Below, piece by piece: positions 2,744 to 63,264 of a DNA stretch of 64,000 nucleotides. The DNA is taken from the NCBI GenBank assembly GCA_964437185.1, contig CAYTFU010000002.1, forward strand, positions 41,296-105,295, written 5' to 3'. The notes below the pieces were generated by a model. That model made no database searches. It was not told the DNA's origin and saw only the letters and a program-made list of their open reading frames with translations. Positions within the stretch are counted from its first letter, which is position 1. Every line of letters begins with the position of its first letter. The stretch is from an uncultured Candidatus Saccharibacteria bacterium (lineage in GTDB: Bacteria; Patescibacteriota; Minisyncoccia; Phycocordibacterales; UBA2100). The translations under genes were made by a program, and so were the position numbers.

Positions 2744-3619
2744 ATGCGCTTTCTTTCGTCTCGACAACTCGTTATTTCTGTAGCGGTGATTGCGTTGCTC
2801 GCGACGTACGGAGCCTACTTCTATTCACGTGAAGAGCCTCCAGAAGTGCAACAAGAGGTCGTCGCACCTGCTCCCGCCTACACGCGTGCGGTTATCGGCC
2901 ACTCCGTGGAAGGTCGCGCTATCGAAGCGTTTACATACGGCGCCGGTGCGAGGCAACTTTTGTTTGTCGGCGGTATGCATGGGGGATACGAGTGGAACAG
3001 CGTGCTTCTTGCGTACGAAATGATGGATTACCTCGTGCAACATCCGGATTTCGTCCCGAGTGGCATGAGCGTTACCATAATCCCTGTAGCCAATCCCGAT
3101 GGTCTCTATAGAATCGTGAACAAAGAGGGGAGGTTTACGCTCACCGACGTTCCATCGGACACAGATCAATCGCCCGGCCGATTCAATGCCCATGAAGTCG
3201 ATCTCAATCGCAACTTCGACTGCAAATGGCAGCCTGAGAGCATGTGGAAGAGTCGCACTGTGAGCGGCGGCACAGCGGCATTTTCTGAGCCTGAGAGCCG
3301 CGCCCTTCGCGATTTTGTTCTCACGCACAAACCTGTCGCCGTCGTCTTTTGGCACAGTAAGGCAAATGCTGTGTATGCGTCGGAGTGCGAGAATGGGATT
3401 TTGCCCATCACGCGCGACATTATGAGCGCCTACGCAGGCGCCGCTGGTTATCCTGCAGTCGATAGCTTCGATAGCTACTCGGTGACTGGAGACGCAGAAG
3501 GGTGGCTCGCTTCCATTGCGATACCAGCGATAACGGTCGAGCTTAAGACACACGAAGATATCGAGTGGGACAAAAATCTTTTGGGAGTGACTGCGCTCGT
3601 CAAATATTTTTCAAAGTAA
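2744..3619 (+). CDS. M14-family zinc carboxypeptidase-like protein (paralog 2)
   Basis: GGMHGGYEWN, IPVANPDG, VDLNRNFDC; collinear with 1831..2742. Confidence 0.65.
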   Translation: MRFLSSRQLVISVAVIALLATYGAYFYSREEPPEVQQEVVAPAPAYTRAVIGHSVEGRAIEAFTYGAGARQLLFVGGMHGGYEWNSVLLAYEMMDYLVQHPDFVPSGMSVTIIPVANPDGLYRIVNKEGRFTLTDVPSDTDQSPGRFNAHEVDLNRNFDCKWQPESMWKSRTVSGGTAAFSEPESRALRDFVLTHKPVAVVFWHSKANAVYASECENGILPITRDIMSAYAGAAGYPAVDSFDSYSVTGDAEGWLASIAIPAITVELKTHEDIEWDKNLLGVTALVKYFSK

Positions 3620-3653: not shown

Positions 3654-4604
3654 ATGGACCAGGTAGGCGCTCCTCATCCAAATGCAGTCCACAAAAAACA
3701 TCTGTGGATGTTTGGCGCCATACTAGCGATCGTTGTCGGCGGTGCATTTGTGTTTACGGGGGTGAAAATCGTATCGCTCAACACAGAAATTGCGCGTCTC
3801 ACGTCGGATATCGCCTCAACCACTTCGGTGCTCTACGGGACAGCGGGCACGCTCTCCAAAAATATTTCCGATTTGAGTACCGAAACAAAGGGGATATCGC
3901 AAGATCTCTCGAATACCAAAGAAAATATTGCAACGGTCAAAGATCAGGTAGGCGGCGTGCAGCAGACGCTCGGCTCCGTTTCGGGCACCGTTTCTACACT
4001 TCAAAAGCTTTCTACTATTGATGCTGAGCTTTTGAAAAAATACTCAAAGGTGTATTTTCTCAACGAAAATTACACGCCCGCCCACCTCTCTGTACTGCCG
4101 CAAGACATAATCTACAGTAATACTCGTCCCGAAAGCTTTCTTACCGAAGCCGCGCCTGCACTCGTCCGAATGATGACGGCGGCGAAGGCCGATGGCGTCT
4201 CAATGTATGTATTTTCTGCGTTTCGATCGTTCGCAAAGCAGCAGACTCTAAAATCTCAATACACATTCACCTATGGCGCCGGCACCGCGAGCACTTTTTC
4301 GGCAGATCAGGGCTACTCTGAACACCAACTCGGGACAACGGTCGATGTCATCGCGCCCGGCCTCGGTGGAGAATTGACCGTCGCTTTTGAAAAAACCCCG
4401 GCGTTTGCATGGCTTATGGCCAATGCGCACAAATTCGGATTTCACCTCTCCTATCCGCGCAACAATACATACTACGTGTACGAGCCCTGGCACTGGCGCT
4501 ACGTGGGCGTAAAACTTGCCACGTACCTGCACGAACAAAACCTCAATTTCTACGACATGGATCAACGCACGATTGATACTTATCTGGCAAATCTATTCGA
4601 CTGA
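3654..4604 (+). CDS. D-alanyl-D-alanine carboxypeptidase, VanY/M15B family, N-terminal TM plus coiled coil
   Basis: SAFRS, SEHQLGTTVD and EPWHWRY motifs of VanY-type peptidases. Confidence 0.75.
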   Translation: MDQVGAPHPNAVHKKHLWMFGAILAIVVGGAFVFTGVKIVSLNTEIARLTSDIASTTSVLYGTAGTLSKNISDLSTETKGISQDLSNTKENIATVKDQVGGVQQTLGSVSGTVSTLQKLSTIDAELLKKYSKVYFLNENYTPAHLSVLPQDIIYSNTRPESFLTEAAPALVRMMTAAKADGVSMYVFSAFRSFAKQQTLKSQYTFTYGAGTASTFSADQGYSEHQLGTTVDVIAPGLGGELTVAFEKTPAFAWLMANAHKFGFHLSYPRNNTYYVYEPWHWRYVGVKLATYLHEQNLNFYDMDQRTIDTYLANLFD

Positions 4605-4658: not shown

Positions 4659-5660
4659 GTGAATACTCAAAATCACGGTATTCTGAGTAGTGTGTTTCCG
4701 CATACACGGCTGCGCCGTTTGAGAAAAACTGAGGCACTGCGAACGCTAACCCGGGAGCAGAGGCTTTCTATCGACGATTTGATTTATCCGATTTTCGTCG
4801 AGGAAAATATACAAGCCCCTATTCCAGTAGAGACGATGCCTGGCGTGTTTCGAATTCCGGAGAGAAATCTAGACGATGAGGTGCGAGCGATCGCATCAGA
4901 TGGAGTGAAAGCAATTATGATGTTCGGTGTCTCGCACAAAAAAGACCCCACGGGAAGCGATTCTTTGAGTCAAAGCGGTCTCATGGCGCGCATGATTAGG
5001 TGCGCAAAAAAAGCGGCTCCAGAGATGATCGTGATTTCCGACAATTGCTTTTGCGAATACACTGATCATGGACATTGCGGCGTAGTTCGTGACGGTTATG
5101 TGGACAACGACCTTTCGATTAAAAACCTAGCGCGTCAGACTGTCGTAGCTGTCGAAGCTGGCGCCGACATGGTGGCGCCCTCTTCGATGTTGGACGGCCA
5201 AGTACAGGCGATTCGGCAGACGCTCGACGCAGCGGGCCATGGCGACATCCCGATTATGGCGTATTCTACGAAATTCGCTTCCTGCTTTTACGGTCCTTTT
5301 CGCAACGCCGCGGGATCAACACTACAAGGCGACCGAAAAACCTATCAGATGGATCCCTCGAACACTCGAGAGGCAATACGAGAATCCTTGCTAGATGAAA
5401 GCGAGGGCGCGGACATTCTTATGGTAAAGCCTGCACTTCCGTATCTCGACATTCTGTCGAAACTGCGAAAACGAAGCCTATTACCAATAGCCGCTTATCA
5501 AGTAAGTGGTGAATACGCAATGATCAAATTTGCTGCCCAAGCTGGTGCCATTGATGAGCGGCGCGCGGTACTTGAAACGCTCGGGGCGATACAAAGAGCT
5601 GGTGCCGATATTATTCTCACATATTTTGCTCGTAGTCTCGCTCGAGAAGGTATCATATGA
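4659..5660 (+). CDS. hemB: porphobilinogen synthase (delta-aminolevulinate dehydratase); GTG start
   Basis: [26 protein letters not shown] and SMLDGQV motifs. Confidence 0.9.
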
Positions 5661-23727: not shown

Positions 23728-24216
23728 ATGGACCTCAATGCGTGGTCAAGCGTTCTTTCGTCGTGGCCGCACGACTGGATTCTTATCGGCGGCATCGCAA
23801 TTTTCGTCTCGCTCGACGCGATGCGCTCTGGCTCTGCCCGCGCGGCGTCGATCGCGCTAGCCTTGCCTGCAACTCTTTTTGCCTTCAACGCAATTCCTCA
23901 GGCTTATTTTTTGGGGCCATTGCTCGCTGAATACACCGCACCAATTGTCCACATTGTTTTATTTGTCGTGTTCTTCGCACTCATTTTTTTCACTACATAT
24001 CGTACCGTCTTTGGCGCATCGGATGGGGGGCGGGTCTTACAATCGCTCCTCATCGGCCTCGCGGCCACGGCCGCTATTGTGCTCGTATGGATTCAGGTGC
24101 CAGCTCTTGAATACGCATGGCATTTTGGCGACCAAGTGCAGGCCGTCTTCGCCCCTGCGCTTAGGCTGTGGTGGTATGTCGCAATTTTCACTTCGCTTGC
24201 GTTTGCGCGGAGTTAA
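23728..24216 (+). CDS. hypothetical polytopic membrane protein
   Basis: 4-5 predicted TM helices; C-terminal 19 codons duplicated at 25779..25834. Confidence 0.6.
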   Translation: MDLNAWSSVLSSWPHDWILIGGIAIFVSLDAMRSGSARAASIALALPATLFAFNAIPQAYFLGPLLAEYTAPIVHIVLFVVFFALIFFTTYRTVFGASDGGRVLQSLLIGLAATAAIVLVWIQVPALEYAWHFGDQVQAVFAPALRLWWYVAIFTSLAFARS

Positions 24217-24259: not shown

Positions 24260-24667
24260 ATGGTAGCCAATTTTACACTCACAGAAACTCAACGATCGGC
24301 TATTGAAAAGCTTGGCGTTGTCCTTTTGTATCTACATGGCTCGGTGGCTGCTGGCACCGCGCGCGCAAACAGTGATGTAGACATTGCTGTTTTATTTGAA
24401 ACTACGCCGCGGGACTCGATTAGCGCGACGACCGCGGTCACGGAGGCTCTACGCGGATTGGTACCGCAACGTGAGATGGATATCGCCATACTCAATGAAG
24501 CAAATCCGCTGCTGAAACAAATAGTCGCCTCGACCGGCAATCTCCTGTACGCGCGTACAACTGACGACGCATTGAAATTTGAGCTGCGCGCCATGCACGA
24601 TTACGAATATTCTCGCCATGTCGTCCGTCTGGGGCAGGAACTTATTTTGCGCAACGTGAGCGTATGA
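24260..24667 (+). CDS. mntA: minimal nucleotidyltransferase antitoxin (MntA-like)
   Basis: GSVAAGTARANSDVDIAV = GSxxxGxxxxxSDxD NTase motif; 4-nt overlap with hepT. Confidence 0.8.
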   Translation: MVANFTLTETQRSAIEKLGVVLLYLHGSVAAGTARANSDVDIAVLFETTPRDSISATTAVTEALRGLVPQREMDIAILNEANPLLKQIVASTGNLLYARTTDDALKFELRAMHDYEYSRHVVRLGQELILRNVSV

Positions 24668-25095
24668 CCGAATTTTCTCGAGAATTACTCATGGGCAAAT
24701 TGGTGCAGTGCAGCGAGGCACTCACCGATCTGCAGCGATACCGCGAGGTCGGAACTTTGGATTACCTGCGCGACCACCAGGACATATATTACGCTGTATG
24801 TTATCGGTTTATCGGTGGCATCGAAGCCTTATTTGATGCTGGCCAAATAATTCTGGCGAGCCACGGACAGCATGCAGCCGGTGACGGCGACATACCCGTA
24901 CTTCTTGGGCGAAGGAAAATTATATCTGACGAGCTGGCTAGTGCATTCACCAATATGTACGGTTTTCGCAATCGGCTGGTGCACGCCTACGGCACGCTCG
25001 ATGATTCCAAGGTGGCCGAGTACCTTCAGAGGCATCTTGTAGATATCGAGGAGCTTATCAGTGTATTTCGAGACACGGTGACAAGCTCGGAGTGA
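24664..25095 (+). CDS. hepT: HEPN/DUF86 toxin (HepT-like RNase)
   Basis: RNRLVHAY (Rx4-6H HEPN motif) near C-terminus; classic MNT-HEPN pair. Confidence 0.8.
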   Translation: MTEFSRELLMGKLVQCSEALTDLQRYREVGTLDYLRDHQDIYYAVCYRFIGGIEALFDAGQIILASHGQHAAGDGDIPVLLGRRKIISDELASAFTNMYGFRNRLVHAYGTLDDSKVAEYLQRHLVDIEELISVFRDTVTSSE

Positions 25096-25128: not shown

Positions 25129-25608
25129 ATGGGGGAGATCGAGATACAGTCCTTGGTGGCTGAGGTCGATCGGGAGGCGGTAGAGTTTTGCCGCGAGATT
25201 TATTCTGAAATGGGATGGCCTGAACATGCCCTAGGTTCAAGCGTCGCGGCACTATTCAGTGAACCTGGTGATGCTTTTGTGACCATCAAGCAGGCCGGAA
25301 AAATTATCGGTACCGGTGGTTTTCTACGACTCTCAAAAGAAGAAGCGGTATTAAAAAGGTTTTACCTCGCAAAACATGTACGCGGTAGTGATCTCGCGCC
25401 GCGATTATTTGCCGATCTCGTAGATAGGGCGCGAGTCATTGGGTACTCCGTGCTCCTTGTGGATGTTTCTTCAACCAACGTACGTGCGATACGATTCTAT
25501 GAGAAGGAGGGTATGAAGGAGTTTTTTGGTGTCTCACCCCACCCGCGCTGGGAAGGATCCTCACCCGAAAGGCAGAAAACTGACCGATATTTTCGCTTAA
25601 AACTCTAA
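25129..25608 (+). CDS. GNAT family N-acetyltransferase
   Basis: acetyl-CoA binding-like region RLFADLVDRARVIGYSVLLVDV...RFYEKEG. Confidence 0.7.
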   Translation: MGEIEIQSLVAEVDREAVEFCREIYSEMGWPEHALGSSVAALFSEPGDAFVTIKQAGKIIGTGGFLRLSKEEAVLKRFYLAKHVRGSDLAPRLFADLVDRARVIGYSVLLVDVSSTNVRAIRFYEKEGMKEFFGVSPHPRWEGSSPERQKTDRYFRLKL

Positions 25609-25856
25609 TTCAACCTGAGGTGATCCATGCTTCATTTTCACATTGTCGCCCGCAAGAGAGCGGAGTAGTTCCGTCAGAGAAACAGAGAATTTACCACAGC
25701 CCTCTCTTGCCTTATCGACAGCAAGGTTTAGAGTACACCCTATGGGTGCGTTTTCATGGAGACTTCTCGAGGACGCACTAAGACGGTGGTGGTATGTCGC
25801 AATCTTCACTTCGCTTGCGTTTGCAAGAAGCTGAGAAAATCAGCGCCTCCATACCT

Positions 25857-28274: not shown

Positions 28275-29792
28275 ATGAGGAAATTCAAAACGGTCTTCGA
28301 GCAGTTGCCCACGCCCGTTAGCATCGCCGTTTTGCTCGTCATAATTGTGATTGTTATTACCACCTCGTGGACGCTATACAATCACACGGTCGACATTCTC
28401 ACGCAGAATTTAAGAGACCGTTTGCAGACTATCTCTGTTACCCAAGCGGCCAATGTCGATGCCTCGGATATTGAGGCACTTCAGGTAGAGGAGGATTGGA
28501 AAAAACCAGAGTGGGAACATCTGGTAAGTAAATTGCACAAAGCAAAGTACAGTAATGGTCAAATTGTTTTTATATACATTTTCCGAAAAACCAAGGATGA
28601 CCCGACCAAAATGGAATTCGTTGCAGACGCTGATTCAATTGACCCATATGCAAACATTAACAATAATCCAACCGGAGAAATAGTTTCCGCATCAACATGC
28701 CCTTTGTGCGTTGACTCCAACAGAGATGGAAAAATCGACAGAGAACATGCTGATAGGCTGCAGTGGCCCGGCATGCTGTTCCCCGAAATAGAAGGTGTGC
28801 CGGAAGCTTTTGCGGCATATAACGGCCCGATTACTGTGCCGGATATTTACACGGACGAATACGGCTCAGTTCTTACGGGCTTTGCTCCCATCACAAACGC
28901 AAGCGGGACTGTCGTAGCGATTCTGGGAACCGACATAAAAGCCGACGACTTTCTCACAATCACAAGGCAGACGCTGTATCCGTTTCTTGCGTTTATCGCC
29001 GCGCTGACGCTGATTATCGCCGTTTTGGCGGCATCGCTCATTTATATTTGGTCTCGACGTGCAAACATGTTAGCAAGACTTTCGCGTAGCCTAGAAATAG
29101 CTAATGCCCAGCAGGAAGGCCTTTTGCACTTTATTAGTCATGAGATCAAGGGCTACCTTACCAACAGCGAAGCAGGGTTTGCTTCCATCGCGGAGGGGGA
29201 TTACGGAGAGGTTACCCCTCAATTGAAAACCATGGCCACAAGCGCCCTCGCGAATGTCCGCAGGGGAGTGAGCACGGTGGTCGACATACTTCGTGCGGCG
29301 GATATGAAGCGAGGCACGGTCTCGTACAGAAAAGACCCTGTCGACGTGCGAGCGGTCGTCGAGAATGTTATCAACACACTTCGACCAAACGTCACAGAAA
29401 AAGGCCTAACTCTCGAGACCAACATCGCAGATGGGTCGTACACCACCTCGGGCGATGAGGAGAAACTTCGCAACAACGTCCTCCGCAACCTCATCGACAA
29501 CGCCATCCGATACACGCCGACCGGAACGATTACCATCAGCCTTTCCAACGCTGGCGGTACAATACGTTTTTCGGTAAAGGACAGCGGTGTCGGAATTACT
29601 GAGGAGGATAAGAAGCGATTATTTACTGAGGGTGGGCACGGCAAAGAATCCATAAAAACCAACGTCCATTCCACCGGCTACGGCCTCTTTATCGCAAAGC
29701 AAGTAGTAGACGCCCACGGCGGCAAAATCTGGGCCGAATCGGAAGGGGAGGGCAAAGGCTCCACGTTTGTTGTAGAGCTCCCCACTGCATAG
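28275..29792 (+). CDS. sensor histidine kinase with extracytoplasmic Cache-like domain (no adjacent response regulator)
   Basis: TM-periplasmic domain-TM, H-box HEIKGYLT, N/G boxes DNAIRYTP, DSGVGI, GYGLFIAKQVV. Confidence 0.85.
   Translation: MRKFKTVFEQLPTPVSIAVLLVIIVIVITTSWTLYNHTVDILTQNLRDRLQTISVTQAANVDASDIEALQVEEDWKKPEWEHLVSKLHKAKYSNGQIVFIYIFRKTKDDPTKMEFVADADSIDPYANINNNPTGEIVSASTCPLCVDSNRDGKIDREHADRLQWPGMLFPEIEGVPEAFAAYNGPITVPDIYTDEYGSVLTGFAPITNASGTVVAILGTDIKADDFLTITRQTLYPFLAFIAALTLIIAVLAASLIYIWSRRANMLARLSRSLEIANAQQEGLLHFISHEIKGYLTNSEAGFASIAEGDYGEVTPQLKTMATSALANVRRGVSTVVDILRAADMKRGTVSYRKDPVDVRAVVENVINTLRPNVTEKGLTLETNIADGSYTTSGDEEKLRNNVLRNLIDNAIRYTPTGTITISLSNAGGTIRFSVKDSGVGITEEDKKRLFTEGGHGKESIKTNVHSTGYGLFIAKQVVDAHGGKIWAESEGEGKGSTFVVELPTA
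29722..29792 (+). repeat. HK 3'-end copy 1 (direct repeat with 30095..30165)
   Basis: first 44 nt identical to copy 2, remainder differs mostly at codon third positions. Confidence 0.7.
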
Positions 29793-30055: not shown

Positions 30056-30094
30056 CAGTGCATTAGACTTGATTCTTTTCTATAAAAAGTAGAC

Positions 30095-30165
30095 ACTCGC
30101 AAGTGCAAAATCTGGGCCGAATCGGAAGGGGAGGGCAAAGGCTCCACCTTCATTGTCGAACTTCC
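30095..30165 (+). repeat. HK 3'-end copy 2 (encodes KIWAESEGEGKGSTFIVELPAA*)
   Basis: in-frame pseudo-C-terminus of histidine kinase with conservative changes V>I, T>A and TAG>TAA. Confidence 0.7.
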
Positions 30166-30207
30166 CGCAGCTTAAAATATCGACGATTTTCTGCTATCAT
30201 AGGTCGC

Positions 30208-38928: not shown

Positions 38929-40272
38929 ATGAGTATCGTTAAGGTGCGTTTCCCACCGAGCCCGACGGGCTATTGCCATGTCGGCACCGCTCGAATGGCG
39001 ATTCTTAATTATTTATTTGCGCGAAAACACGGCGGGAGCATTGTATTTCGCAGCGAGGACACCGACAAGGAGCGCAGCCGCGCGGAGTACGAAGACGACA
39101 TTCGAGAAAGTCTTAGCTGGCTCGGACTTTCGTGGGACGAGTTTTATCGCCAGTCTGAGCGCACCCACGTATACACTACCGCGCTTCTACAACTCATCCG
39201 CGAGGGGAAAGCATACGTCTCCGAGGAGGAGAGTAAAAAAGAACCTGGCGTACGCGTGCGTCCGGTACGACTCAAAAACCCGGGCACCGTTATCACGTTT
39301 GCAGATGAGATCCGCGGTGAGATTACGTTTGATACGGCAGAACTCAAAGATTTTGTCATTGCGCGCTCGATCAACGATCCGCTGTATCACCTTGCAGTGG
39401 TCGTCGACGATCACGATATGGGGATCACGCACGTGATTCGCGGCGAAGATCACATCTCAAACACACCTCGGCAAATTCTGATTCAGGAGGCGCTTGGATA
39501 TTCGCGGCCCGTGTACGCGCACTACCCGCTGCACCTTTCAGCAGACAGAGCGAAGCTCTCTAAACGCACGGGCGATGTGGCCGTCCGATCGTATCGAGAA
39601 AAAGGATACCTGTCCGGAGCACTACTCAATTACCTCGCGACACTTGGCTGGACGCCACCATCGGGTAGGGAGATATTGAGTCTTGATGATATGGTCAGCG
39701 AATTTGAACTCAAAGACGTGCACAAAAGCGGGGCAATTTTCGATCTCGAAAAGTTGCGCTGGTACAACAGACACTACTTGCACGAACTTTCACCCGGAGA
39801 ATTTGCCGCAGAAGCGTCGATTATCCTCTCCGAAGAAATGCACACTCGCGGTATTACGGTCACAGACGACCTTGTACTAAAATTATGGCCGATTATACGC
39901 GAGCGAATAGGCGTGTGGGAGGATTTGCGTGAGGCGATTCGCGATGCCGAGTTTGATTTCTTTTTCAAAGACCCGGTATTGGATTCCGCCCGTATATCGC
40001 AAAAAGGAGTCGAGCCAAACGTGACGCTGAAGCACCTCGCCGCTTGTGCGGAGATGCTGACCTCTGTCACCGAGGAGGATTTTACCGAGTCACACATCAA
40101 GGATCGGCTGTGGCCCTACGCAACATCAGAGGGTCGCGGGGCTGTTTTATGGCCGCTACGATACGCGCTCTCGGGCCTCGAAAAATCACCGGACCCCTTT
40201 GTAATCCTCGGGATCATAGGGAAAGAGACGGCACTGAGGCGTATTGAGGCAGCTCGATCGCAGCTTGTATGA
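38929..40272 (+). CDS. gltX: glutamyl-tRNA synthetase
   Basis: RFPPSPTGYCHVGTAR (HIGH-class), KLSKR; start could also be 38917. Confidence 0.9.
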   Translation: MSIVKVRFPPSPTGYCHVGTARMAILNYLFARKHGGSIVFRSEDTDKERSRAEYEDDIRESLSWLGLSWDEFYRQSERTHVYTTALLQLIREGKAYVSEEESKKEPGVRVRPVRLKNPGTVITFADEIRGEITFDTAELKDFVIARSINDPLYHLAVVVDDHDMGITHVIRGEDHISNTPRQILIQEALGYSRPVYAHYPLHLSADRAKLSKRTGDVAVRSYREKGYLSGALLNYLATLGWTPPSGREILSLDDMVSEFELKDVHKSGAIFDLEKLRWYNRHYLHELSPGEFAAEASIILSEEMHTRGITVTDDLVLKLWPIIRERIGVWEDLREAIRDAEFDFFFKDPVLDSARISQKGVEPNVTLKHLAACAEMLTSVTEEDFTESHIKDRLWPYATSEGRGAVLWPLRYALSGLEKSPDPFVILGIIGKETALRRIEAARSQLV

Positions 40273-41564
40273 ATAGAGGACTCGCCGTTATCTCGGTACT
40301 CTGCGTACTGCTGTGCTTACCGTCCAATTCCTTCGCCCAAAATGCGCCTGCCTCAGAGGAGCGCATCAACTCCTTACAATCGCAGATTGACACCCACAAA
40401 TCTGAGATCGAAAAAATTGACCGGGAAATTGCGCAATATCAACAGCAGCTTGACGCTGTCGGGACCAAAAAGAAAACACTTCAAAACACACTTTCGCAGC
40501 TGGATCTTCAGATAAAAAAAGCGACTGCGTCGATAAACGTCACAAAAAATAAAATTAGTGCAACGCAGCTCGAAATTCTCCAGCTTGAGAAGGGAATTGC
40601 AGGCAAAGAAGTTTCTATCGAAACGGGGAACCAGGGCCTGCGAGAGTCCCTGCGTCGACTCAATGAGATTGGAACCAATCCTCTTGCAGTGCAAGTGCTT
40701 TCCTCAATCGACATCTCCGAAGCGTGGGAAGACGCGGACGCTATTCAAGAACTCCAAGTGGCAGTGCGCGATCAAATCGCACGACTCGCTTCGGAGAAAC
40801 AATCACTCACGGAGACAAAAAACCAGACCGAGGCGAAGCGCGCGCAATTGGTGAAGCAAAAGGATACTCTGCTTGCGCAGCAAGGCTCGCTCACGGCTCA
40901 AAAAAAGGCGCAGAACGAGCTTCTCGTTCAGACCAAATCACAGGAATCCACCTACCAATCAATTTTGAAACAAAAACAGGCGGCAAAAGCCACGTTTGAA
41001 GCAGCGCTTGGTGATCTTAAAATCCAGTTCCAGAGAGCTATTAGGCCCTCGGAAATTTTGGCCGCCGGAAAGGGGATATTGCGCTGGCCGCTCGACAACG
41101 TGCGCATCACACAGCAATTTGGAAACACCGCCTTCGCGGCTTCTGGTGCATATAATGGCAAGGGACACAACGGCATCGACCTCGCCGCTCCCGTCGGCAC
41201 ACCGCTGAGAGCGGCTCTTAATGGCGTAGTTTTGGGGACGGGCAACACGGATAGCATAAAGGGCTGCTACTCATTTGGACGGTGGGTGATGATTAAGCAC
41301 CCCAATGGGATCAACACCATGTACTCGCACCTCTCCCAAATCAACGTTGCAGAGGGCCAAAACGTCGATACAGGGCACATAATCGGCTACAGCGGGGAAA
41401 CGGGCTATGCCACAGGCCCACACCTTCACTTCGGCGTGTACGTCAGCTCGGCAACGGCAATCATTCGCCTCGGCGCCGCGAGCAATTCGACCACCCCGTG
41501 CTCAAACGCCGTCATGCCCGTCGCACCCCTATCGGGATACTTAAATCCGATGAATTATCTCTAG
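40269..41564 (+). CDS. M23 family metallopeptidase with N-terminal coiled coil (EnvC-like)
   Basis: signal peptide, long coiled coil, C-terminal LytM domain GHNGIDLAAP...PHLHFGVY. Confidence 0.8.
   Translation: MNRGLAVISVLCVLLCLPSNSFAQNAPASEERINSLQSQIDTHKSEIEKIDREIAQYQQQLDAVGTKKKTLQNTLSQLDLQIKKATASINVTKNKISATQLEILQLEKGIAGKEVSIETGNQGLRESLRRLNEIGTNPLAVQVLSSIDISEAWEDADAIQELQVAVRDQIARLASEKQSLTETKNQTEAKRAQLVKQKDTLLAQQGSLTAQKKAQNELLVQTKSQESTYQSILKQKQAAKATFEAALGDLKIQFQRAIRPSEILAAGKGILRWPLDNVRITQQFGNTAFAASGAYNGKGHNGIDLAAPVGTPLRAALNGVVLGTGNTDSIKGCYSFGRWVMIKHPNGINTMYSHLSQINVAEGQNVDTGHIIGYSGETGYATGPHLHFGVYVSSATAIIRLGAASNSTTPCSNAVMPVAPLSGYLNPMNYL
41520..41564 (+). repeat. M23 gene 3'-end copy 1
   Basis: 45 nt; direct repeat with 41620..41664. 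Confidence 0.75.
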
Positions 41565-41597
41565 TACCGAGATACTCCTAACCTGAAATGAGTCTAG

Positions 41598-41620
41598 CCC
41601 CGTGGTGAAAACGCACGGGG
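41598..41620 (+). repeat. hairpin CCCCGTG-GTGAAAACG-CACGGGG inside 55-nt insert
   Basis: 7-bp perfect stem. Confidence 0.6.
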
Positions 41621-41664
41621 TCGCACCCCTATCGGGATATCTAAATCCGATGAACTATCTCTAG
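41620..41664 (+). repeat. M23 gene 3'-end copy 2 (encodes identical VAPLSGYLNPMNYL*)
   Basis: 3 differences from copy 1, all synonymous third-position changes. Confidence 0.75.
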
Positions 41665-41765
41665 TGGGGCGGAGCCTGCTTGTAATACAGTTCGCCTGAC
41701 ACTAACTCTAGCCGATGGCGTGAAGTTAGTGTCAGTGTGCACCAAGTATAAGATGTGAAATAGAT

Positions 41766-41790
41766 GAGGCGGCACCGCGGGTGCCGCCTC
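41766..41790 (-). terminator. GC-rich hairpin GAGGCGGCACC-GCG-GGTGCCGCCTC, likely intrinsic terminator for minus-strand genes 41803..42740
   Basis: 11-bp perfect stem; on minus strand followed by ATCTATTTCACATCTT (T-rich). Confidence 0.5.
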
Positions 41791-41802
41791 ATTGAGGGAA
41801 GA

Positions 41803-42030
41803 TCAGCCATCAGATATGGACTTCAGCGCACCAAGATTGATTGGACCTCGGTGACCTTCTATCCACGCTGAATCATTTTGAATTTTGGTGATTTTCCCCC
41901 TTACGCCTGGATCGTATATGGATTGCACCAGCATTCCAATAGCAAACTTCTCACCGAGCTGACCAGTAGATTGAAGACCCGGAATTCTGCCGCCAACGTT
42001 GACTGGTGCCCACGGTCGAAATGTAGACAT
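41803..42030 (-). CDS. hypothetical small protein
   Basis: 75-aa ORF, no family recognised. Confidence 0.35.
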   Translation of the reverse strand: MSTFRPWAPVNVGGRIPGLQSTGQLGEKFAIGMLVQSIYDPGVRGKITKIQNDSAWIEGHRGPINLGALKSISDG

Positions 42031-42089
42031 GCGTTACCCCCAAAAGAACAAGTGACGATTATCACACAGGCAAGTGGATTTTTCGAGGG

Positions 42090-42740
42090 TCATATTTTCT
42101 TTCCACGCTTGGACCACTCAGTTGTTTTCATGGCGCGCAACTCGACAGGCGCTGCGCGACGTAATGTGCGTAGATTTTTTTTGGGAGCGACAGGGAAGTG
42201 GCGCGAATCGTCAAGAGCCTGTACGAGCCAAGTCAGTTCTTTGTCAGACGTAACCCAACGACTGGGTGTAAATTTTGAGAGATCATACGGTGCCGAATAT
42301 TCCCGCAGCGACTTCTTTCCATTCCACTCTAAATATTCGTGAAAATATGACATCGCAAGCTCGCGCGGCGACGCGTACACTGGATCTCTGTACCGAAGAA
42401 TCGAGTGATTGGTCTTCGATATCGCGCCCCAGCGACCGCCTTGCATAAATAATGCGACGACGTGATCCTCGTCTGTCGGCGCTGTTCGAAAATCCATTAA
42501 CAACGGCGGGGCACCATGGTACGCGAGTGCTGCGGCAGCCAAAAGGGCACCCTCAAAGCAGTGAGCAGTATTTTGCTCGATAACTCGTCTCGGCGACATG
42601 TATGTCTCGCCCGAGATCTCGAAGTTTATTGGGAGCGTGTCCAAGAAATCCTGAATTTTAGTGGGTGTCGACAATTTCGATAGCAGCGAGCGCTCGAGGG
42701 GAAGAAGGATAGACCGCAGGGTGTCACGATACGTGGCCAT
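42090..42740 (-). CDS. transglutaminase-like superfamily protein (putative Cys protease fold)
   Basis: AHCFEGALLAAAAL (Cys) ... DEDHVVALFMQGGRWGAI (His/Trp) resembles TGase core. Confidence 0.45.
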   Translation of the reverse strand: MATYRDTLRSILLPLERSLLSKLSTPTKIQDFLDTLPINFEISGETYMSPRRVIEQNTAHCFEGALLAAAALAYHGAPPLLMDFRTAPTDEDHVVALFMQGGRWGAISKTNHSILRYRDPVYASPRELAMSYFHEYLEWNGKKSLREYSAPYDLSKFTPSRWVTSDKELTWLVQALDDSRHFPVAPKKNLRTLRRAAPVELRAMKTTEWSKRGKKI

Positions 42741-56088: not shown

Positions 56089-57312
56089 CTACTGAATCGT
56101 TACCACCGTATTTTTACTCGTCGCGGTGCCTGCGGAGTTGGTGCATTGCAACGCGAGAGAAATAGTGCCCGCGATTGACGTGAGTGGCGCACCCAATACC
56201 TTCGCCCCTTCACCCCCTATCGCAAACGGCTGCCCGTTTTGCGACACAGTGCAAGACCCCGCTTGCATTCCGACGGATGACCAAACGATAAGCGTGCTGC
56301 CATTTCTCGTAACGGTCGGTGATTGCGCAATGATGAGCGATGCAGACGACATTGCAATTTGGGGAGTCGTACTCGATGTTTGACCGACTCCAGGAGAACT
56401 TGTCGCGCCCGTAGATATTCCACTACCTGTTCCAGTCTGCGAACCACTATTGGTACCTGATCCCTGCGTCGAGCCGCCCGTTCCACCCCCGCCGCTTGCA
56501 CCAGACCCCCCACTTGTACTTGTGCTACCAAGGCCAGCCAACCACTGAGCTAGCCCTGCGGCAATACTAGGCGTGGCGGATGTGTTGTAATTTGTTTGAA
56601 AAGTTCGGTATGGATCGGCCGTTGGCGGAATGAAGGTAGGAGGATAGTACTCGTTCATGCCCACATCCGCATCACTGAACGCCAGCGAGATTCCGGATGC
56701 ATCTACATAGTTACCAGGCACGTTCACCGCAACCCCCGCCACTTTCAATTTCGCTGCAAAAGAATTCAAAATATCCGTGTACGTTTTTCCAGCAAAGATT
56801 TTTGGATTGTACAGCGTTTCTTTCACAAACACCGTCGAAGCGAGTGCATTTGGAGTCTGCATGTAGCCAGCAATAAACCTCACCGACCCGGCTTGGCCTA
56901 GGAAATGGCCTAAGTAAAGACCGAGGGATGGGTCAATTTTTGCCTGAATAAAAAGTTTTTCATTTCTGTCTAATGTTTCTCTCAGTGCAAAGGCGGTTAC
57001 CTTGGCGGAGGTCACGGGATCTCGTCGGCTTTCCAATCTAAGCGAGCTACCGTACAGAGCTTTAGTAGCGCGCAACCATGAATCCTCAGTCCATTGGAAC
57101 ATTCCGACAGCGGTCGAAGTAGTATTCGCGATGGTTGCGTTACCGTTACTCTCTATATTTGCAATTTTTCCCAAAATACCTACAGGCAACCGATACTGTT
57201 TTGTTTCCAGTTCAAAAAAGATTTGATTCAGAGATACGGTGATGAGGGCGTTCGCAGACCCGAAAAGAAAAAGAACTACGAGCGCTCCTAAAATAACCGG
57301 TCGCCTTAGCAT
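56089..57312 (-). CDS. secreted lytic-transglycosylase-like protein with G/S/T-rich linker and shared C-terminal domain
   Basis: signal peptide; ESNGNATIANTTSTAVGMFQW resembles SLT ES...GLMQ motif; C-terminal ~90 aa paralogous to 57382..57640. Confidence 0.55.
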   Translation of the reverse strand: MLRRPVILGALVVLFLFGSANALITVSLNQIFFELETKQYRLPVGILGKIANIESNGNATIANTTSTAVGMFQWTEDSWLRATKALYGSSLRLESRRDPVTSAKVTAFALRETLDRNEKLFIQAKIDPSLGLYLGHFLGQAGSVRFIAGYMQTPNALASTVFVKETLYNPKIFAGKTYTDILNSFAAKLKVAGVAVNVPGNYVDASGISLAFSDADVGMNEYYPPTFIPPTADPYRTFQTNYNTSATPSIAAGLAQWLAGLGSTSTSGGSGASGGGGTGGSTQGSGTNSGSQTGTGSGISTGATSSPGVGQTSSTTPQIAMSSASLIIAQSPTVTRNGSTLIVWSSVGMQAGSCTVSQNGQPFAIGGEGAKVLGAPLTSIAGTISLALQCTNSAGTATSKNTVVTIQ

Positions 57313-57381: not shown

Positions 57382-58689
57382 TTATTGGACGACTATATCA
57401 ACGACACGGCGATTCAAAACGCCACCGAAATCGGTGCAGTCGAACTTAATCGTGGTCGTACCGGATTGTGAAGTGTGTGGGACACTAAGAACCGAACTCC
57501 CCTCCGAACCGACTCCAAAAGGAATGTCGTTTTGGGTAATGGTGCACGATGTAGGGATCATACCGACAGAGGTCCACGCAATAACGGTGCTTCCATTGCG
57601 CGGAATGCTGCGAGTTTGCGCAATGATGAGCGAGGCAGCGGGAATTGACCTCGTTGACGTGGAGTAAATCGGGGTAACCGAGACCGCGGGAGGTTGAGTG
57701 GTTGGCTGAGTCTGCATCGGGGTCCCGCCAGTTGTGTACCCCTGATTTGTCGTCATTGGGTTAAACGCTTGCATCGGCGGCATCGGCGGTGGAGGCGGCA
57801 TAAACGGTGTCGGAGAAAACATCGGCTGGGACATGTATGGCATCGATTGTCCGCATGGCATAAGCATCATCGGGGCAGTGCTCACCATACACATCTGATT
57901 TTGCTGAGTCGGGTTATAGGGATTTCCAAAAGGATTTCCACCCATTACGTTGTTTCCAACGGCCGAATACGCAGTGCCCGTTTCGTCGGATACCCATATT
58001 CCGTTCGGAGGGACGGGTGGCTGCATGCCGCCGATGGTGCCGGAAGGCTCAATGTGCCACGGCTCAACAACCATTGGGTAGCGAAGCCCAAAACCCGAGT
58101 AATTCCGGTGTGCCCATGCACACGAAGATATTTGTGCGATACAATCGGCAGTTGCTTGCGATCCGACTCCCGAACCTTTCAATTTTCCCTCGTAGTGAAG
58201 ATCGGCGGCGAGGCCATAATTGTGTTTTGATTGCCCTGGCGGCGCAACGGGAGCTCCCGTCCTTCCTGCAGCAACATACGTTGCGTACATTTGTTTTTGG
58301 CGTTCAACGGATCTGTATCCCGATACAATAGTGATATTTTTTCCCTCTGCGGCCGCCAGTTTCGTCAACCCATACAGTCTGCAGGCAAATATAGGATTCA
58401 AACCGCTTACATCGGTGGGATAACCGGATCTGTTGATTTGTTGCAGGTACAAAAACGGATTTTCGGTGCAGCCGCCATAGATGAGCGGTTTATCTCTATC
58501 GCAAAACTGCCCACCTGCTGGAATGGTCACGCCCGCCGCCTTCAGGCCTTCTTTTTCTTCCGGAGTAATCTCGTGGCAGCCAGGATCTATCTCCCCATAC
58601 GACGCCGAGGGCAAAATTATTACTACAAGCAGCACCAGACCTGAGAGGACTTTTGCCAAGTTCACGATTAAAAGTGTAGCACACAGCAA
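57382..58689 (-). CDS. secreted M15-family (VanY/YcbK-like) peptidase with P/M-rich linker and shared C-terminal domain
   Basis: SGYRSVERQ, HNYGLAADL, VVEPWHIE motifs; alt (TTG/GTG) start. Confidence 0.6.
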   Translation of the reverse strand: MLCATLLIVNLAKVLSGLVLLVVIILPSASYGEIDPGCHEITPEEKEGLKAAGVTIPAGGQFCDRDKPLIYGGCTENPFLYLQQINRSGYPTDVSGLNPIFACRLYGLTKLAAAEGKNITIVSGYRSVERQKQMYATYVAAGRTGAPVAPPGQSKHNYGLAADLHYEGKLKGSGVGSQATADCIAQISSCAWAHRNYSGFGLRYPMVVEPWHIEPSGTIGGMQPPVPPNGIWVSDETGTAYSAVGNNVMGGNPFGNPYNPTQQNQMCMVSTAPMMLMPCGQSMPYMSQPMFSPTPFMPPPPPMPPMQAFNPMTTNQGYTTGGTPMQTQPTTQPPAVSVTPIYSTSTRSIPAASLIIAQTRSIPRNGSTVIAWTSVGMIPTSCTITQNDIPFGVGSEGSSVLSVPHTSQSGTTTIKFDCTDFGGVLNRRVVDIVVQ

Positions 58690-59001: not shown

Positions 59002-60653
<1,652 letters not shown>

Positions 60654-61692: not shown

Positions 61693-63264
61693 TTATTTCG
61701 ATGAGGAGAAAAATTCCGAATGGGCCAGCCTAAACGACTCAAATGCGGCGTTGAGTTCCTTTTTCAAATCGTCGGAGACTGCACCAGCATCTTTAATGCT
61801 TTTGAGCGTCTTCGCGTGTTGATCCTCCAAGTACGCCACGAGCTTTGCTTCCACGTGCGTCACCTGTGCGACGGGCACCTCCAGAAAGAATTTATGATTG
61901 GCAGCGTAGAGCACTGCGACTTGCATCTCCACGGGAATAGGCGCTCCGTTCTTCTGCTTCAGCACCTCCACCATTCGCTGACCCGACGCGATACGATCTG
62001 CCGTCACCTTATCGAGATCTTGCGCAAATTGCATGAACGCCTCCAGCTCTCGAAACTGAGCGAGCTCGAGCTTGAGTCCGCCTGCTACGGATTTCATCGC
62101 CTTCGTCTGAGCCGCAGATCCTACGCGCGAGACAGAAATACCGACATCGATCGCGGGTCGCACGCCTTTGTTGAAGAGTTCTGCGATCAAGAAGATCTGA
62201 CCATCTGTGATCGAAATGACGTTGGTCGGAATGTAGGCCGAAACGTCCCCTTCCTGCGTCTCAATAATCGGGAGTGCAGTGATAGAGCCTCCGCCCTTTT
62301 CCTCACTCAAGCGACACGCGCGCTCAAGCAGTCGAGAATGTAAGTAGAAAATATCTCCTGGATACGCCTCGCGTCCCGGCGGACGTCGCAGAAGGAGCGA
62401 GAGTTCGCGGTACGCAACCGCCTGCTTGGAGAGGTCGTCGTAAATAATGAGTACATCTTTCCCCGCGTCCATGAAGTACTCGCCGATAGCGACGCCTGAA
62501 AACGGCGCGATGAATTGAAGCGCGGCAGGCGCGGATGCTGGAGCGTCCACAATGATCGTGTATTCGAGCGCACCCTCCTTGCGCAATTGCTCGACGATTC
62601 GCGCAGTCTTGGATTCCTTCTGGCCGATCGCGACGTAAATACAGATGGGTCGTTTCTCTTTTGGCTCGTTGCGCTGGTTGATTATCGTGTCGATGGCCAC
62701 GGTCGTCTTGCCGATAGATCGATCGCCAATGATCAGCTCGCGCTGCCCTCGACCGATTGGAATCATCGAGTCGATTGCTTTGATACCGGTTTGCAATGGC
62801 ACCGACACCGACTTTCGATCAATAACACCGCTTGCCTGTCGCTCGACAGGCATCATTTTCGTATTTTTGAAAGGCCCCTTTCCGTCGATCGGCTCGCCAA
62901 GCGCATTCACCACACGCCCGAGCAAATCTTCACCCGATGGGACCGAAAGGATTTTGCCCGTCGATTTCACCGTCATGCCTTCTGCCACGCGCGAGGTCTC
63001 TCCCAAAATCGTTGCGCGCACCCCATCCTCTTCAAGGTTCAAGATGAGACCATAGAGCGGTCCATGTGTTTCCAAGGAGTCCGCGAGCTTTTTACCTTTC
63101 CCTTCTTCAAAATGGATGATTTCGCTCATCACTGCCTTCGACAAGCCATCGATCGCGACCACGCCGTCCCCGACCGAGGTCACGCGCCCCACATGCTCAC
63201 TCTCGTGCGTGGGCACAAAGTGCTCGATCTCGCGTATGATTTTTTCAACTACTGAGTTATCCAT
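61693..63264 (-). CDS. atpA: F1 ATP synthase alpha subunit
   Basis: GDRSIGKT P-loop, full-length collinearity. Confidence 0.95.

Follow-up and report, generated by a model that had tools for sequence, protein, structure and literature searches.

A displaced second 3′ end of an M23 peptidase gene as a candidate recombination scar in a patescibacterial genome

Duplicated gene ends in described systems and at the M23 locus

Integrative elements and their integrase-less derivatives, cis-mobilizable elements (CIMEs), sit in the 3′ ends of protein-coding genes, as ICESt1 and ICESt3 do in fda of Streptococcus thermophilus. The att repeats of such integrative and conjugative elements (ICEs) and CIMEs are identical cores recognized by a known integrase, and att-bounded, non-autonomous remnants exist. 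Here we describe a direct repeat of a gene 3′ end in a 64-kb stretch of DNA (the window; 64,000 nucleotides of contig CAYTFU010000002.1) from the genome of an uncultured Candidatus Saccharibacteria bacterium, in which the last codons of a gene encoding an M23 peptidoglycan DD-metalloendopeptidase recur behind the gene, across a spacer of 55 nucleotides (nt). The locus is like an ICE or CIME in carrying direct repeats of its target gene's 3′ end, and unlike them in that neither an integrase nor a conserved core was found.

A similar arrangement is produced by prophage e14 and phage 21 in the icd gene of Escherichia coli, where there are two directly oriented copies of the gene 3′ end, of which the first completes the gene and the second is displaced, and where the differences between icd and icdC are largely synonymous (PMC13626634). 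As in icd, direct repeats of the M23 gene's 3′ end (46 nt) bound the insert. However, e14 spans 15 kb, encodes an integrase of its own and excises precisely, whereas the M23 insert is 55 nt long, with no recombinase found, no evidence of excision and no element sequence common to the lineages that carry a second M23 tail. Displaced orphan 3′ ends also occur at effector-immunity loci of the type VI secretion system (T6SS) and at Rhs and CdiA loci, and have been ascribed to homology-facilitated illegitimate recombination: one joint forms by homology in the conserved upstream part, the second is illegitimate, and the former 3′ end is displaced downstream but retained (PMC5361080). The M23 locus would share this layout, but the T6SS, Rhs and CdiA tails encode different toxins together with immunity genes, whereas both M23 tails specify the same housekeeping-type peptide and there is no evident selective payload.

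Two other systems bear a partial likeness. In the variable and template repeats (VR/TR) of diversity-generating retroelements (DGRs), a gene 3′ end is likewise repeated shortly downstream in non-coding DNA, but there the mismatched positions are adenines of the template and the encoded amino acids differ; the mismatches in the window are all C/T, synonymous and never at A, and the 14 differences at a second locus described below (L020) are of mixed types. Miniature inverted-repeat transposable elements (MITEs) resemble the locus as short, hairpin-bearing inserts between direct repeats, but the M23 insert is single-copy, has no terminal inverted repeats and is flanked by a non-identical repeat of 46 nt. 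Target-site duplications are generally a few bases long and identical when made; a 46-nt repeat with three mismatches is therefore unlike a fresh one. The M23 feature is not a new system. It adds one more case to a recognized class of footprint, from a phylum that has been little studied, and this genome has unusually many of them.

The M23 gene (positions 40269-41564 of the window, plus strand; 431 amino acids, or aa) was identified from the list of open reading frames (ORFs), a PF01551 match and source names. It ends in GTCGCACCCC...CTCTAG, and the C-terminus of its product, MPVAPLSGYLNPMNYL, is strongly conserved across M23 homologues. Its last 14 codons and stop form copy 1 (41520-41565, plus strand; VAPLSGYLNPMNYL, the TAG stop and one T), the working end of the gene, and a displaced, untranslated copy 2 lies at 41620-41665 on the same strand. 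The original prediction, made from the sequence of the window alone, had reported this 3′ end to be duplicated 100 nt downstream with three synonymous changes; we confirmed the 45-nt match (41520-41564 and 41620-41664) and found that it extends by one further T, to 46 nt. Both copies encode VAPLSGYLNPMNYL followed by a stop, and they differ by three C/T mismatches (taC/taT, Tta/Cta and aaT/aaC), all of them synonymous transitions. No match of 45 nt with three mismatches arose in 100 shuffles of the window, and three random transitions placed in one copy left its translation intact in 4% of trials (p = 0.04). By itself this three-of-three pattern would be suggestive; it becomes convincing only jointly with that of L020.

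Copy 2 is in the +1 frame relative to the M23 gene, and the sole ORF that crosses it, read directly from the sequence, consists of 20 codons from a GTG start. In annotation, copy 2 should be labelled a gene remnant and neither a small gene nor a repeat element. Two other assemblies of the same organism, a Candidatus Kaiserbacteria (Patescibacteria) bacterium, match the stretch at every base, one being a MEGAHIT contig (ENA ERZ27247830) and the other a Logan contig (ERR3094293), and the repeat structure is therefore not an assembly artefact: the duplication is real.

The 55-nt spacer between the copies (41565-41619, plus strand) has no detectable relative. Its final 23 nt form the hairpin CCCCGTG-N9-CACGGGG (41597-41619, plus strand), with a 7-bp GC stem (arms 41597-41603 and 41613-41619) whose 3′ arm abuts copy 2 and is followed, without a U-tract, by TCGCACCCC. 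The predicted 7-bp stem is thus present, though thermodynamically ordinary: folding gave z = -1.6, and 18 of 200 shuffles folded equally well. A terminator scan called no plus-strand terminator at 41597-41619, where a stem is present and a U-tract is absent. The hairpin may be a stem-loop that marks, or once marked, the end of a transcript; alternatively, it may have arisen as a by-product of the joint or of end processing. In a MAFFT alignment its 5′ arm and loop (41597-41613) are collinear with M23 coding sequence at 41493-41508 (14 of 17 bases), 27 nt further upstream in the gene, at a score that was not significant (reached in 103 of 1000 shuffles). Copy 2 may accordingly have been longer in the past, extending to about 72 nt before the stop, and have had a patch inside it remodelled, and the part of the spacer that is certainly not M23 sequence is limited to 41566-41596. 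Where the hairpin meets copy 2 (41617-41629), the sequence is GGGGTCGCACCCC, a palindrome of 5 bp. This junction has GTGCGTTTTC behind it on the minus strand, and the scan calls the junction terminator-like.

Second tails in other lineages and elsewhere in the window

The nearest homologues of the M23 gene carry the names Candidatus Kaiserbacteria or Patescibacteria. A convergent gene of 216-218 aa overlaps the M23 gene by 10 nt in the three relatives nearest to the window (protein identities of 80%, 74% and 73%), so that its 3′ end contains the M23 stop. We surveyed this junction in about 170 loci (L003-L186), drawn from metagenomes as well as species genomes. Where the 216-aa gene is retained, most genomes of the Kaiserbacteria clade have it overlapping or abutting the M23 gene (gaps of about -13 to +17 nt), and a few loci have gaps of 67-144 nt. 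In the window, about 525 nt separate the M23 gene from its conserved, convergent 216-aa neighbour (42090-42740, minus strand; no Pfam match), and these comprise the spacer, copy 2, two hairpins and a 75-aa ORF. Several lineages have unrelated inserts of 0.5-1.9 kb at the same junction. At L020, L021, L024, L082, L085, L089 and L090 these consist of 0.7-1.9 kb of unrelated genes, among them NUDIX and HD-domain genes in L024 (Pfam) and ATP-binding cassette (ABC) transporter genes in L082, L085 and L089 (read by eye); the other ORFs in the junction inserts have no assigned function. The 216-aa gene has been lost in some lineages, for example L181 and L183. Because the inserts are varied and unrelated and the 216-aa gene is sometimes lost, the junction is a hotspot of DNA gain and loss. 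The arrangement in the window is an insertion, derived relative to the ancestral state. A Pfam scan of nine hotspot insert ORFs (from L012, L020, L021, L024 and L090) found no recombinase domain.

When each M23 gene was scanned against its own locus, a second M23 tail was found in only two other, unrelated lineages, L020 and L012. The L020 M23 gene is 70% identical to that of the window, and its two tails (together 1621-1772) are separated by a 62-nt spacer that ends, as in the window, in a hairpin whose 3′ arm finishes GGGG against copy 2; behind copy 2 lie a strong terminator and a convergent gene. The two L020 copies encode the same peptide despite 14 differences of mixed types in 45 positions, including TAG versus TGA, an outcome obtained in 0 of 200,000 random trials (p<5e-6). 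They share no identical run longer than about 5 nt, and there is no in-frame ATG, GTG or TTG between the preceding stop and copy 2. Comparison with the sister lineage L090 gave no polarity, since both L020 copies have 11 differences from L090 and 14 from each other. In L012 (M23 61% identical), the tails at 3740-3784 and 5064-5108 are 1.28 kb apart, with two ORFs and their own terminators in between; the stop of copy 2 has been lost, changed to TGG, and all four differences between the copies are synonymous (p = 0.006).

A hairpin precedes copy 2 in all three lineages, and the inserts of the window, L020 and L012 share no sequence with one another. In a distance matrix of the tails, each copy 2 was either nearest its own copy 1 or as distant from it as any other lineage; in the window, no other known lineage comes anywhere near as close to copy 2 as copy 1 does. 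The copy 2 sequences did not cluster in this matrix, and descent from a common mobile unit was therefore rejected. Orthologous loci fall into three sets: same-species assemblies are identical to the window, distant relatives do not have the arrangement, and L020 and L012 have analogous ones that were independently derived. The original prediction had set against itself a lack of further copies together with an identical arrangement in relatives; such identity exists only trivially, in other assemblies of the same species.

The tails of 2017 ORFs in all of the DNA gathered were scanned for downstream recurrence. Five recur (the M23 tails of L020, L012 and the window, and those of a histidine-kinase gene and a 162-aa ORF), and three of these five are in the window. 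The working tail of the histidine-kinase gene lies at 29727-29792 (plus strand) and its displaced second tail at 30110-30175 (plus strand), between an 82-aa gene and trpS; the repeat can also be delimited as 29705-29792 and 30088-30175, about 380 nt apart. The two tails differ by seven synonymous and two non-synonymous codons and by TAG versus TAA. The 82-aa gene has 23 homologues and is native to the interval between the kinase gene and trpS in relatives (L173-L179), and trpS of the window is an ordinary orthologue with 70-72% identity to those of relatives. The extra DNA at this locus amounts to about 110 nt, comprising the second kinase tail and a second TTTTCT(GC)TAT box before trpS. With so little extra DNA, and with the 82-aa gene natively syntenic, the kinase tails do not bound a cassette in the manner of att-like repeats. 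Instead, the locus looks like the recombination product of a lineage with the 82-aa gene and one lacking it, with one joint out of register.

The 162-aa ORF encodes what reading of its sequence alone suggests to be a membrane protein. Its working tail (24157-24216, plus strand) recurs 1.6 kb downstream (25775-25834, plus strand) with eight synonymous codon differences, one non-synonymous one and a TGA in place of TAA. A nucleotidyltransferase gene (24260-24667; Pfam) and HEPN-like and GNAT-like ORFs (24664-25095 and 25129-25608; both read by eye) lie between the two tails. Every copy 2 is followed by the ordinary context of a gene end or intergenic region, with a convergent gene and terminators at some loci and, at others, the following gene preceded by a promoter-like box.

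Weighing the origin of the second M23 tail

We consider it somewhat more probable than not that the M23 repeat is a recombination scar at an insertion hotspot, left by exchange between related Kaiserbacteria lineages that differed at the junction. Incoming DNA would have come from a closely related lineage in which an indel made the M23/216-aa junction different, and would have been joined by one homologous crossover and a second that was out of register, and hence illegitimate. The incoming and the resident M23 tails would then both have survived, 55 nt apart, with copy 1 in use and copy 2 untranslated. Until the two were brought together, each would have been the genuine end of a gene evolving in a separate lineage, and it is because of this separate history that they would differ only at synonymous sites. 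The mechanism may be homology-facilitated illegitimate recombination or a related process, with uptake of DNA as a plausible preceding step. In the window and L020, the illegitimate joint may have formed at the base of an earlier transcript-end or terminator stem-loop, now seen as the hairpin abutting copy 2. Such a process is plausible in Patescibacteria, which are reported to keep genes for homologous recombination and competence and to exchange genes mostly among themselves (PMC12455944).

Substitution patterns of the kind left by diverged orthologous ends were found at L020 (p<5e-6) and, with stop switches, at the kinase (7:2) and membrane-protein (8:1) loci; the window alone gave p = 0.04. 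A switch of stop from TAG to TGA, via TAA, together with purely synonymous change fits what would be expected of a real gene end and not of a decaying fragment. In each case, the economical reading of these sequences is that both tails are orthologous ends from different lineages joined by recombination. The event at the window's M23 gene would then have involved a close relative (93% identity) and that at L020 a distant one (69%).

Several observations weigh against this interpretation. No parental arrangement, either empty site or donor, was found, the nearest relative being only 80% identical in protein; neither junction can therefore be demonstrated to be homologous or microhomology-mediated. 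The three synonymous transitions in the window, taken alone, are compatible with duplication in situ. Moreover, a single codon marks the start of clean copy 2 homology in all three lineages (the window, L020 and L012; n = 3), namely the GTC of V-[A/V]-P-L (GTCG), 45 nt before the stop, with GGG or GGC just 5′. Such a common start would not be expected of random illegitimate joints, and with three cases coincidence cannot be told apart from a preference rooted in the mechanism, such as a site-specific enzyme or a cut site in donor DNA. A conserved nucleotide block at the repeat boundary was sought as a possible recombination anchor and rejected, only an unconvincing ATGCC standing out. At the native in-frame ATG six bases upstream of the shared start, the window has ACG and L020 has CTG, and in L012 the frame is shifted; upstream extension of copy 2 homology was not significant in L020 or L012.

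Because the repeat starts at the same codon in three lineages, site-specific integration of an element carrying a replacement M23 tail, as in e14 and icd, stays the main rival despite the failure to find an integrase, and we regard it as unlikely. The copies would be attL and attR, and the 55 nt a deleted or non-autonomous remnant. The synonymous differences between direct repeats of a gene 3′ end parallel those of icd and icdC (PMC13626634), the two L012 tails have 1.28 kb and two ORFs between them, and the short palindrome GGGGTCGCACCCC lies at the junction. Yet no integrase or recombinase domain occurs in the L012 ORFs between or just after the copies, nor in the nine scanned insert ORFs. 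The inserts share no sequence, the copy 2 sequences have no common ancestry, the M23-tail pattern is absent from IMG/VR contigs, the kinase tails enclose a natively syntenic gene and so no cassette, and the L020 copies lack any identical run beyond about 5 nt that could act as a crossover core. A related idea, which we hold to be improbable, is a directed insertion behind genes in Kaiserbacteria, and perhaps in Patescibacteria generally, that is independent of an integrase or uses an unrecognized recombinase, the incoming DNA carrying a spare tail. Its joins would have a fixed position, here always the Val codon that lies 45 nt ahead of the M23 stop and adjoins a G-run or hairpin, and the 55-62-nt inserts of the window and L020 would be its minimal cassette form. 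If an error of replication or repair had instead given rise to a one-off local duplication together with about 31-55 nt of filler, copy 1 would have to have drifted synonymously and copy 2 to have stayed nearly unchanged. This reading accords with the closeness of the two copies to each other compared with any other lineage, and with the small number of differences, all transitions (p = 0.04 if all arose in copy 2, and higher if some arose in the selected copy 1). The possible residual collinear homology up to 72 nt upstream is a further point in its favour, and the hairpin at the joint could reflect snap-back synthesis. We nonetheless judge this duplication distinctly unlikely. It cannot be a simple tandem one, since the sequence after copy 2 is unrelated to the 55-nt spacer, and the window holds no source for the filler. 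In addition, the 10-14 differences, stop switches and near absence of amino-acid change at the L020, kinase and membrane-protein loci could not be produced by decay in situ, and three events in 64 kb point to a shared process.

A retained functional element, in which the hairpin and second tail act as the M23 terminator or 3′ untranslated region or as an antisense target of convergent transcripts, appears very improbable. The region does fold well beyond shuffles (z = -4.7 over 311 nt), a hairpin stands before copy 2 in three lineages, and the native ATG is destroyed or frameshifted in all three; however, there is no Rfam family at E<=1 and no U-tract, the insert hairpin is unexceptional, nearly all relatives lack the feature, and the inserts are not conserved in sequence. 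The original prediction had offered a solo scar or a miniature element. The scar is supported by the derived locus and the orthologue-like substitutions. A miniature non-autonomous transposable element (MITE-like or derived from IS200/605) with a target duplication would account for a small, hairpin-bearing insert between direct repeats, but its single copy, the lack of terminal inverted repeats, the unrelated insert of L020 and the length and non-identity of the repeat leave it with a very slight chance. The least credible explanation is an assembly artefact that joined two strain variants. It comes to mind because the DNA stems from a metagenome-assembled genome and the synonymous sites that separate the copies resemble strain variation; against it, the same structure was recovered in three assemblies from different assemblers and samples, the variant sites of the two copies are 87 nt apart, within one read or one k-mer at k=141, and the 55 nt share no k-mers with either flank.

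If recombination between diverged lineages did leave these scars, displaced tails that differ only at synonymous sites would be small and easily missed footprints of that process. The three scars in 64 kb and the recurrence at M23 genes suggest that homeologous recombination with one sloppy joint commonly changes gene content in these bacteria, which are tiny, uncultured and probably naturally competent. Counts of such scars across metagenome-assembled genomes could map insertion hotspots and the frequency of cross-lineage recombination.

Surroundings of the second tail and minor features

The original prediction also proposed that further copies of the 55-nt sequence and its hairpin be sought, and none was recovered. 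The spacer occurs once in the 64-kb window and shows no BLAST similarity to the rest of the window or to the approximately 170 related loci. The 23-mer of the hairpin has no exact match in 185,579 GTDB species genomes, a collection that evidently does not contain this genome. A degenerate pattern of the two copies had no match in JGI metagenomes, and no terminal inverted repeats were found at the spacer ends. Across the window, no Rfam model reached its gathering score; for 41400-42150 there was no hit even at E<=1, and no transfer RNA or transfer-messenger RNA features were found.

Two inverted repeats reported downstream of copy 2 proved to be real and strong. One (41696-41735) has 12-bp arms (41696-41707 and 41724-41735) around a 16-nt loop, and the other (41764-41792) is a perfect GC-rich hairpin with 13-bp arms (41764-41776 and 41780-41792); folded together they gave z = -7. 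The second sits between copy 2 and a convergent 75-aa ORF and looks like a bidirectional terminator, though no T-run there passed the scan. The 75-aa ORF (41803-42030, minus strand) is a candidate gene in lineage-specific junction DNA, with no Pfam family and no homologue outside this species among 5.8 billion proteins. Beyond it, next to the 216-aa gene of the window, a third and decayed M23 tail was considered and rejected, its best alignments being no better than those of shuffles; candidate remnant tails beside the 216-aa gene in other insert-bearing loci, including one picked out by eye in L090, were likewise not significant.

Comparison of the insert ends for a common motif yielded a single 11-mer, GTGCGTTTTCA, present at the M23 insert and the membrane-protein locus. 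It occurs exactly twice in the window, once in the loop of the M23 hairpin (41606-41616, minus strand) and once at 25746-25756 (plus strand), 19 nt to the left of the second membrane-protein tail. An equally good match arose in 1 of 500 shuffles; this is a post hoc observation, with the two occurrences in opposite orientation, and serves as a lead only. The window also contains longer, diverged direct repeats with 70-80% identity, spaced 0.9-2.8 kb apart (2041-2225 and 2921-3105; 56266-56354 and 57559-57647; 60082-60126 and 62878-62922). These three pairs are probably tandem paralogous genes.

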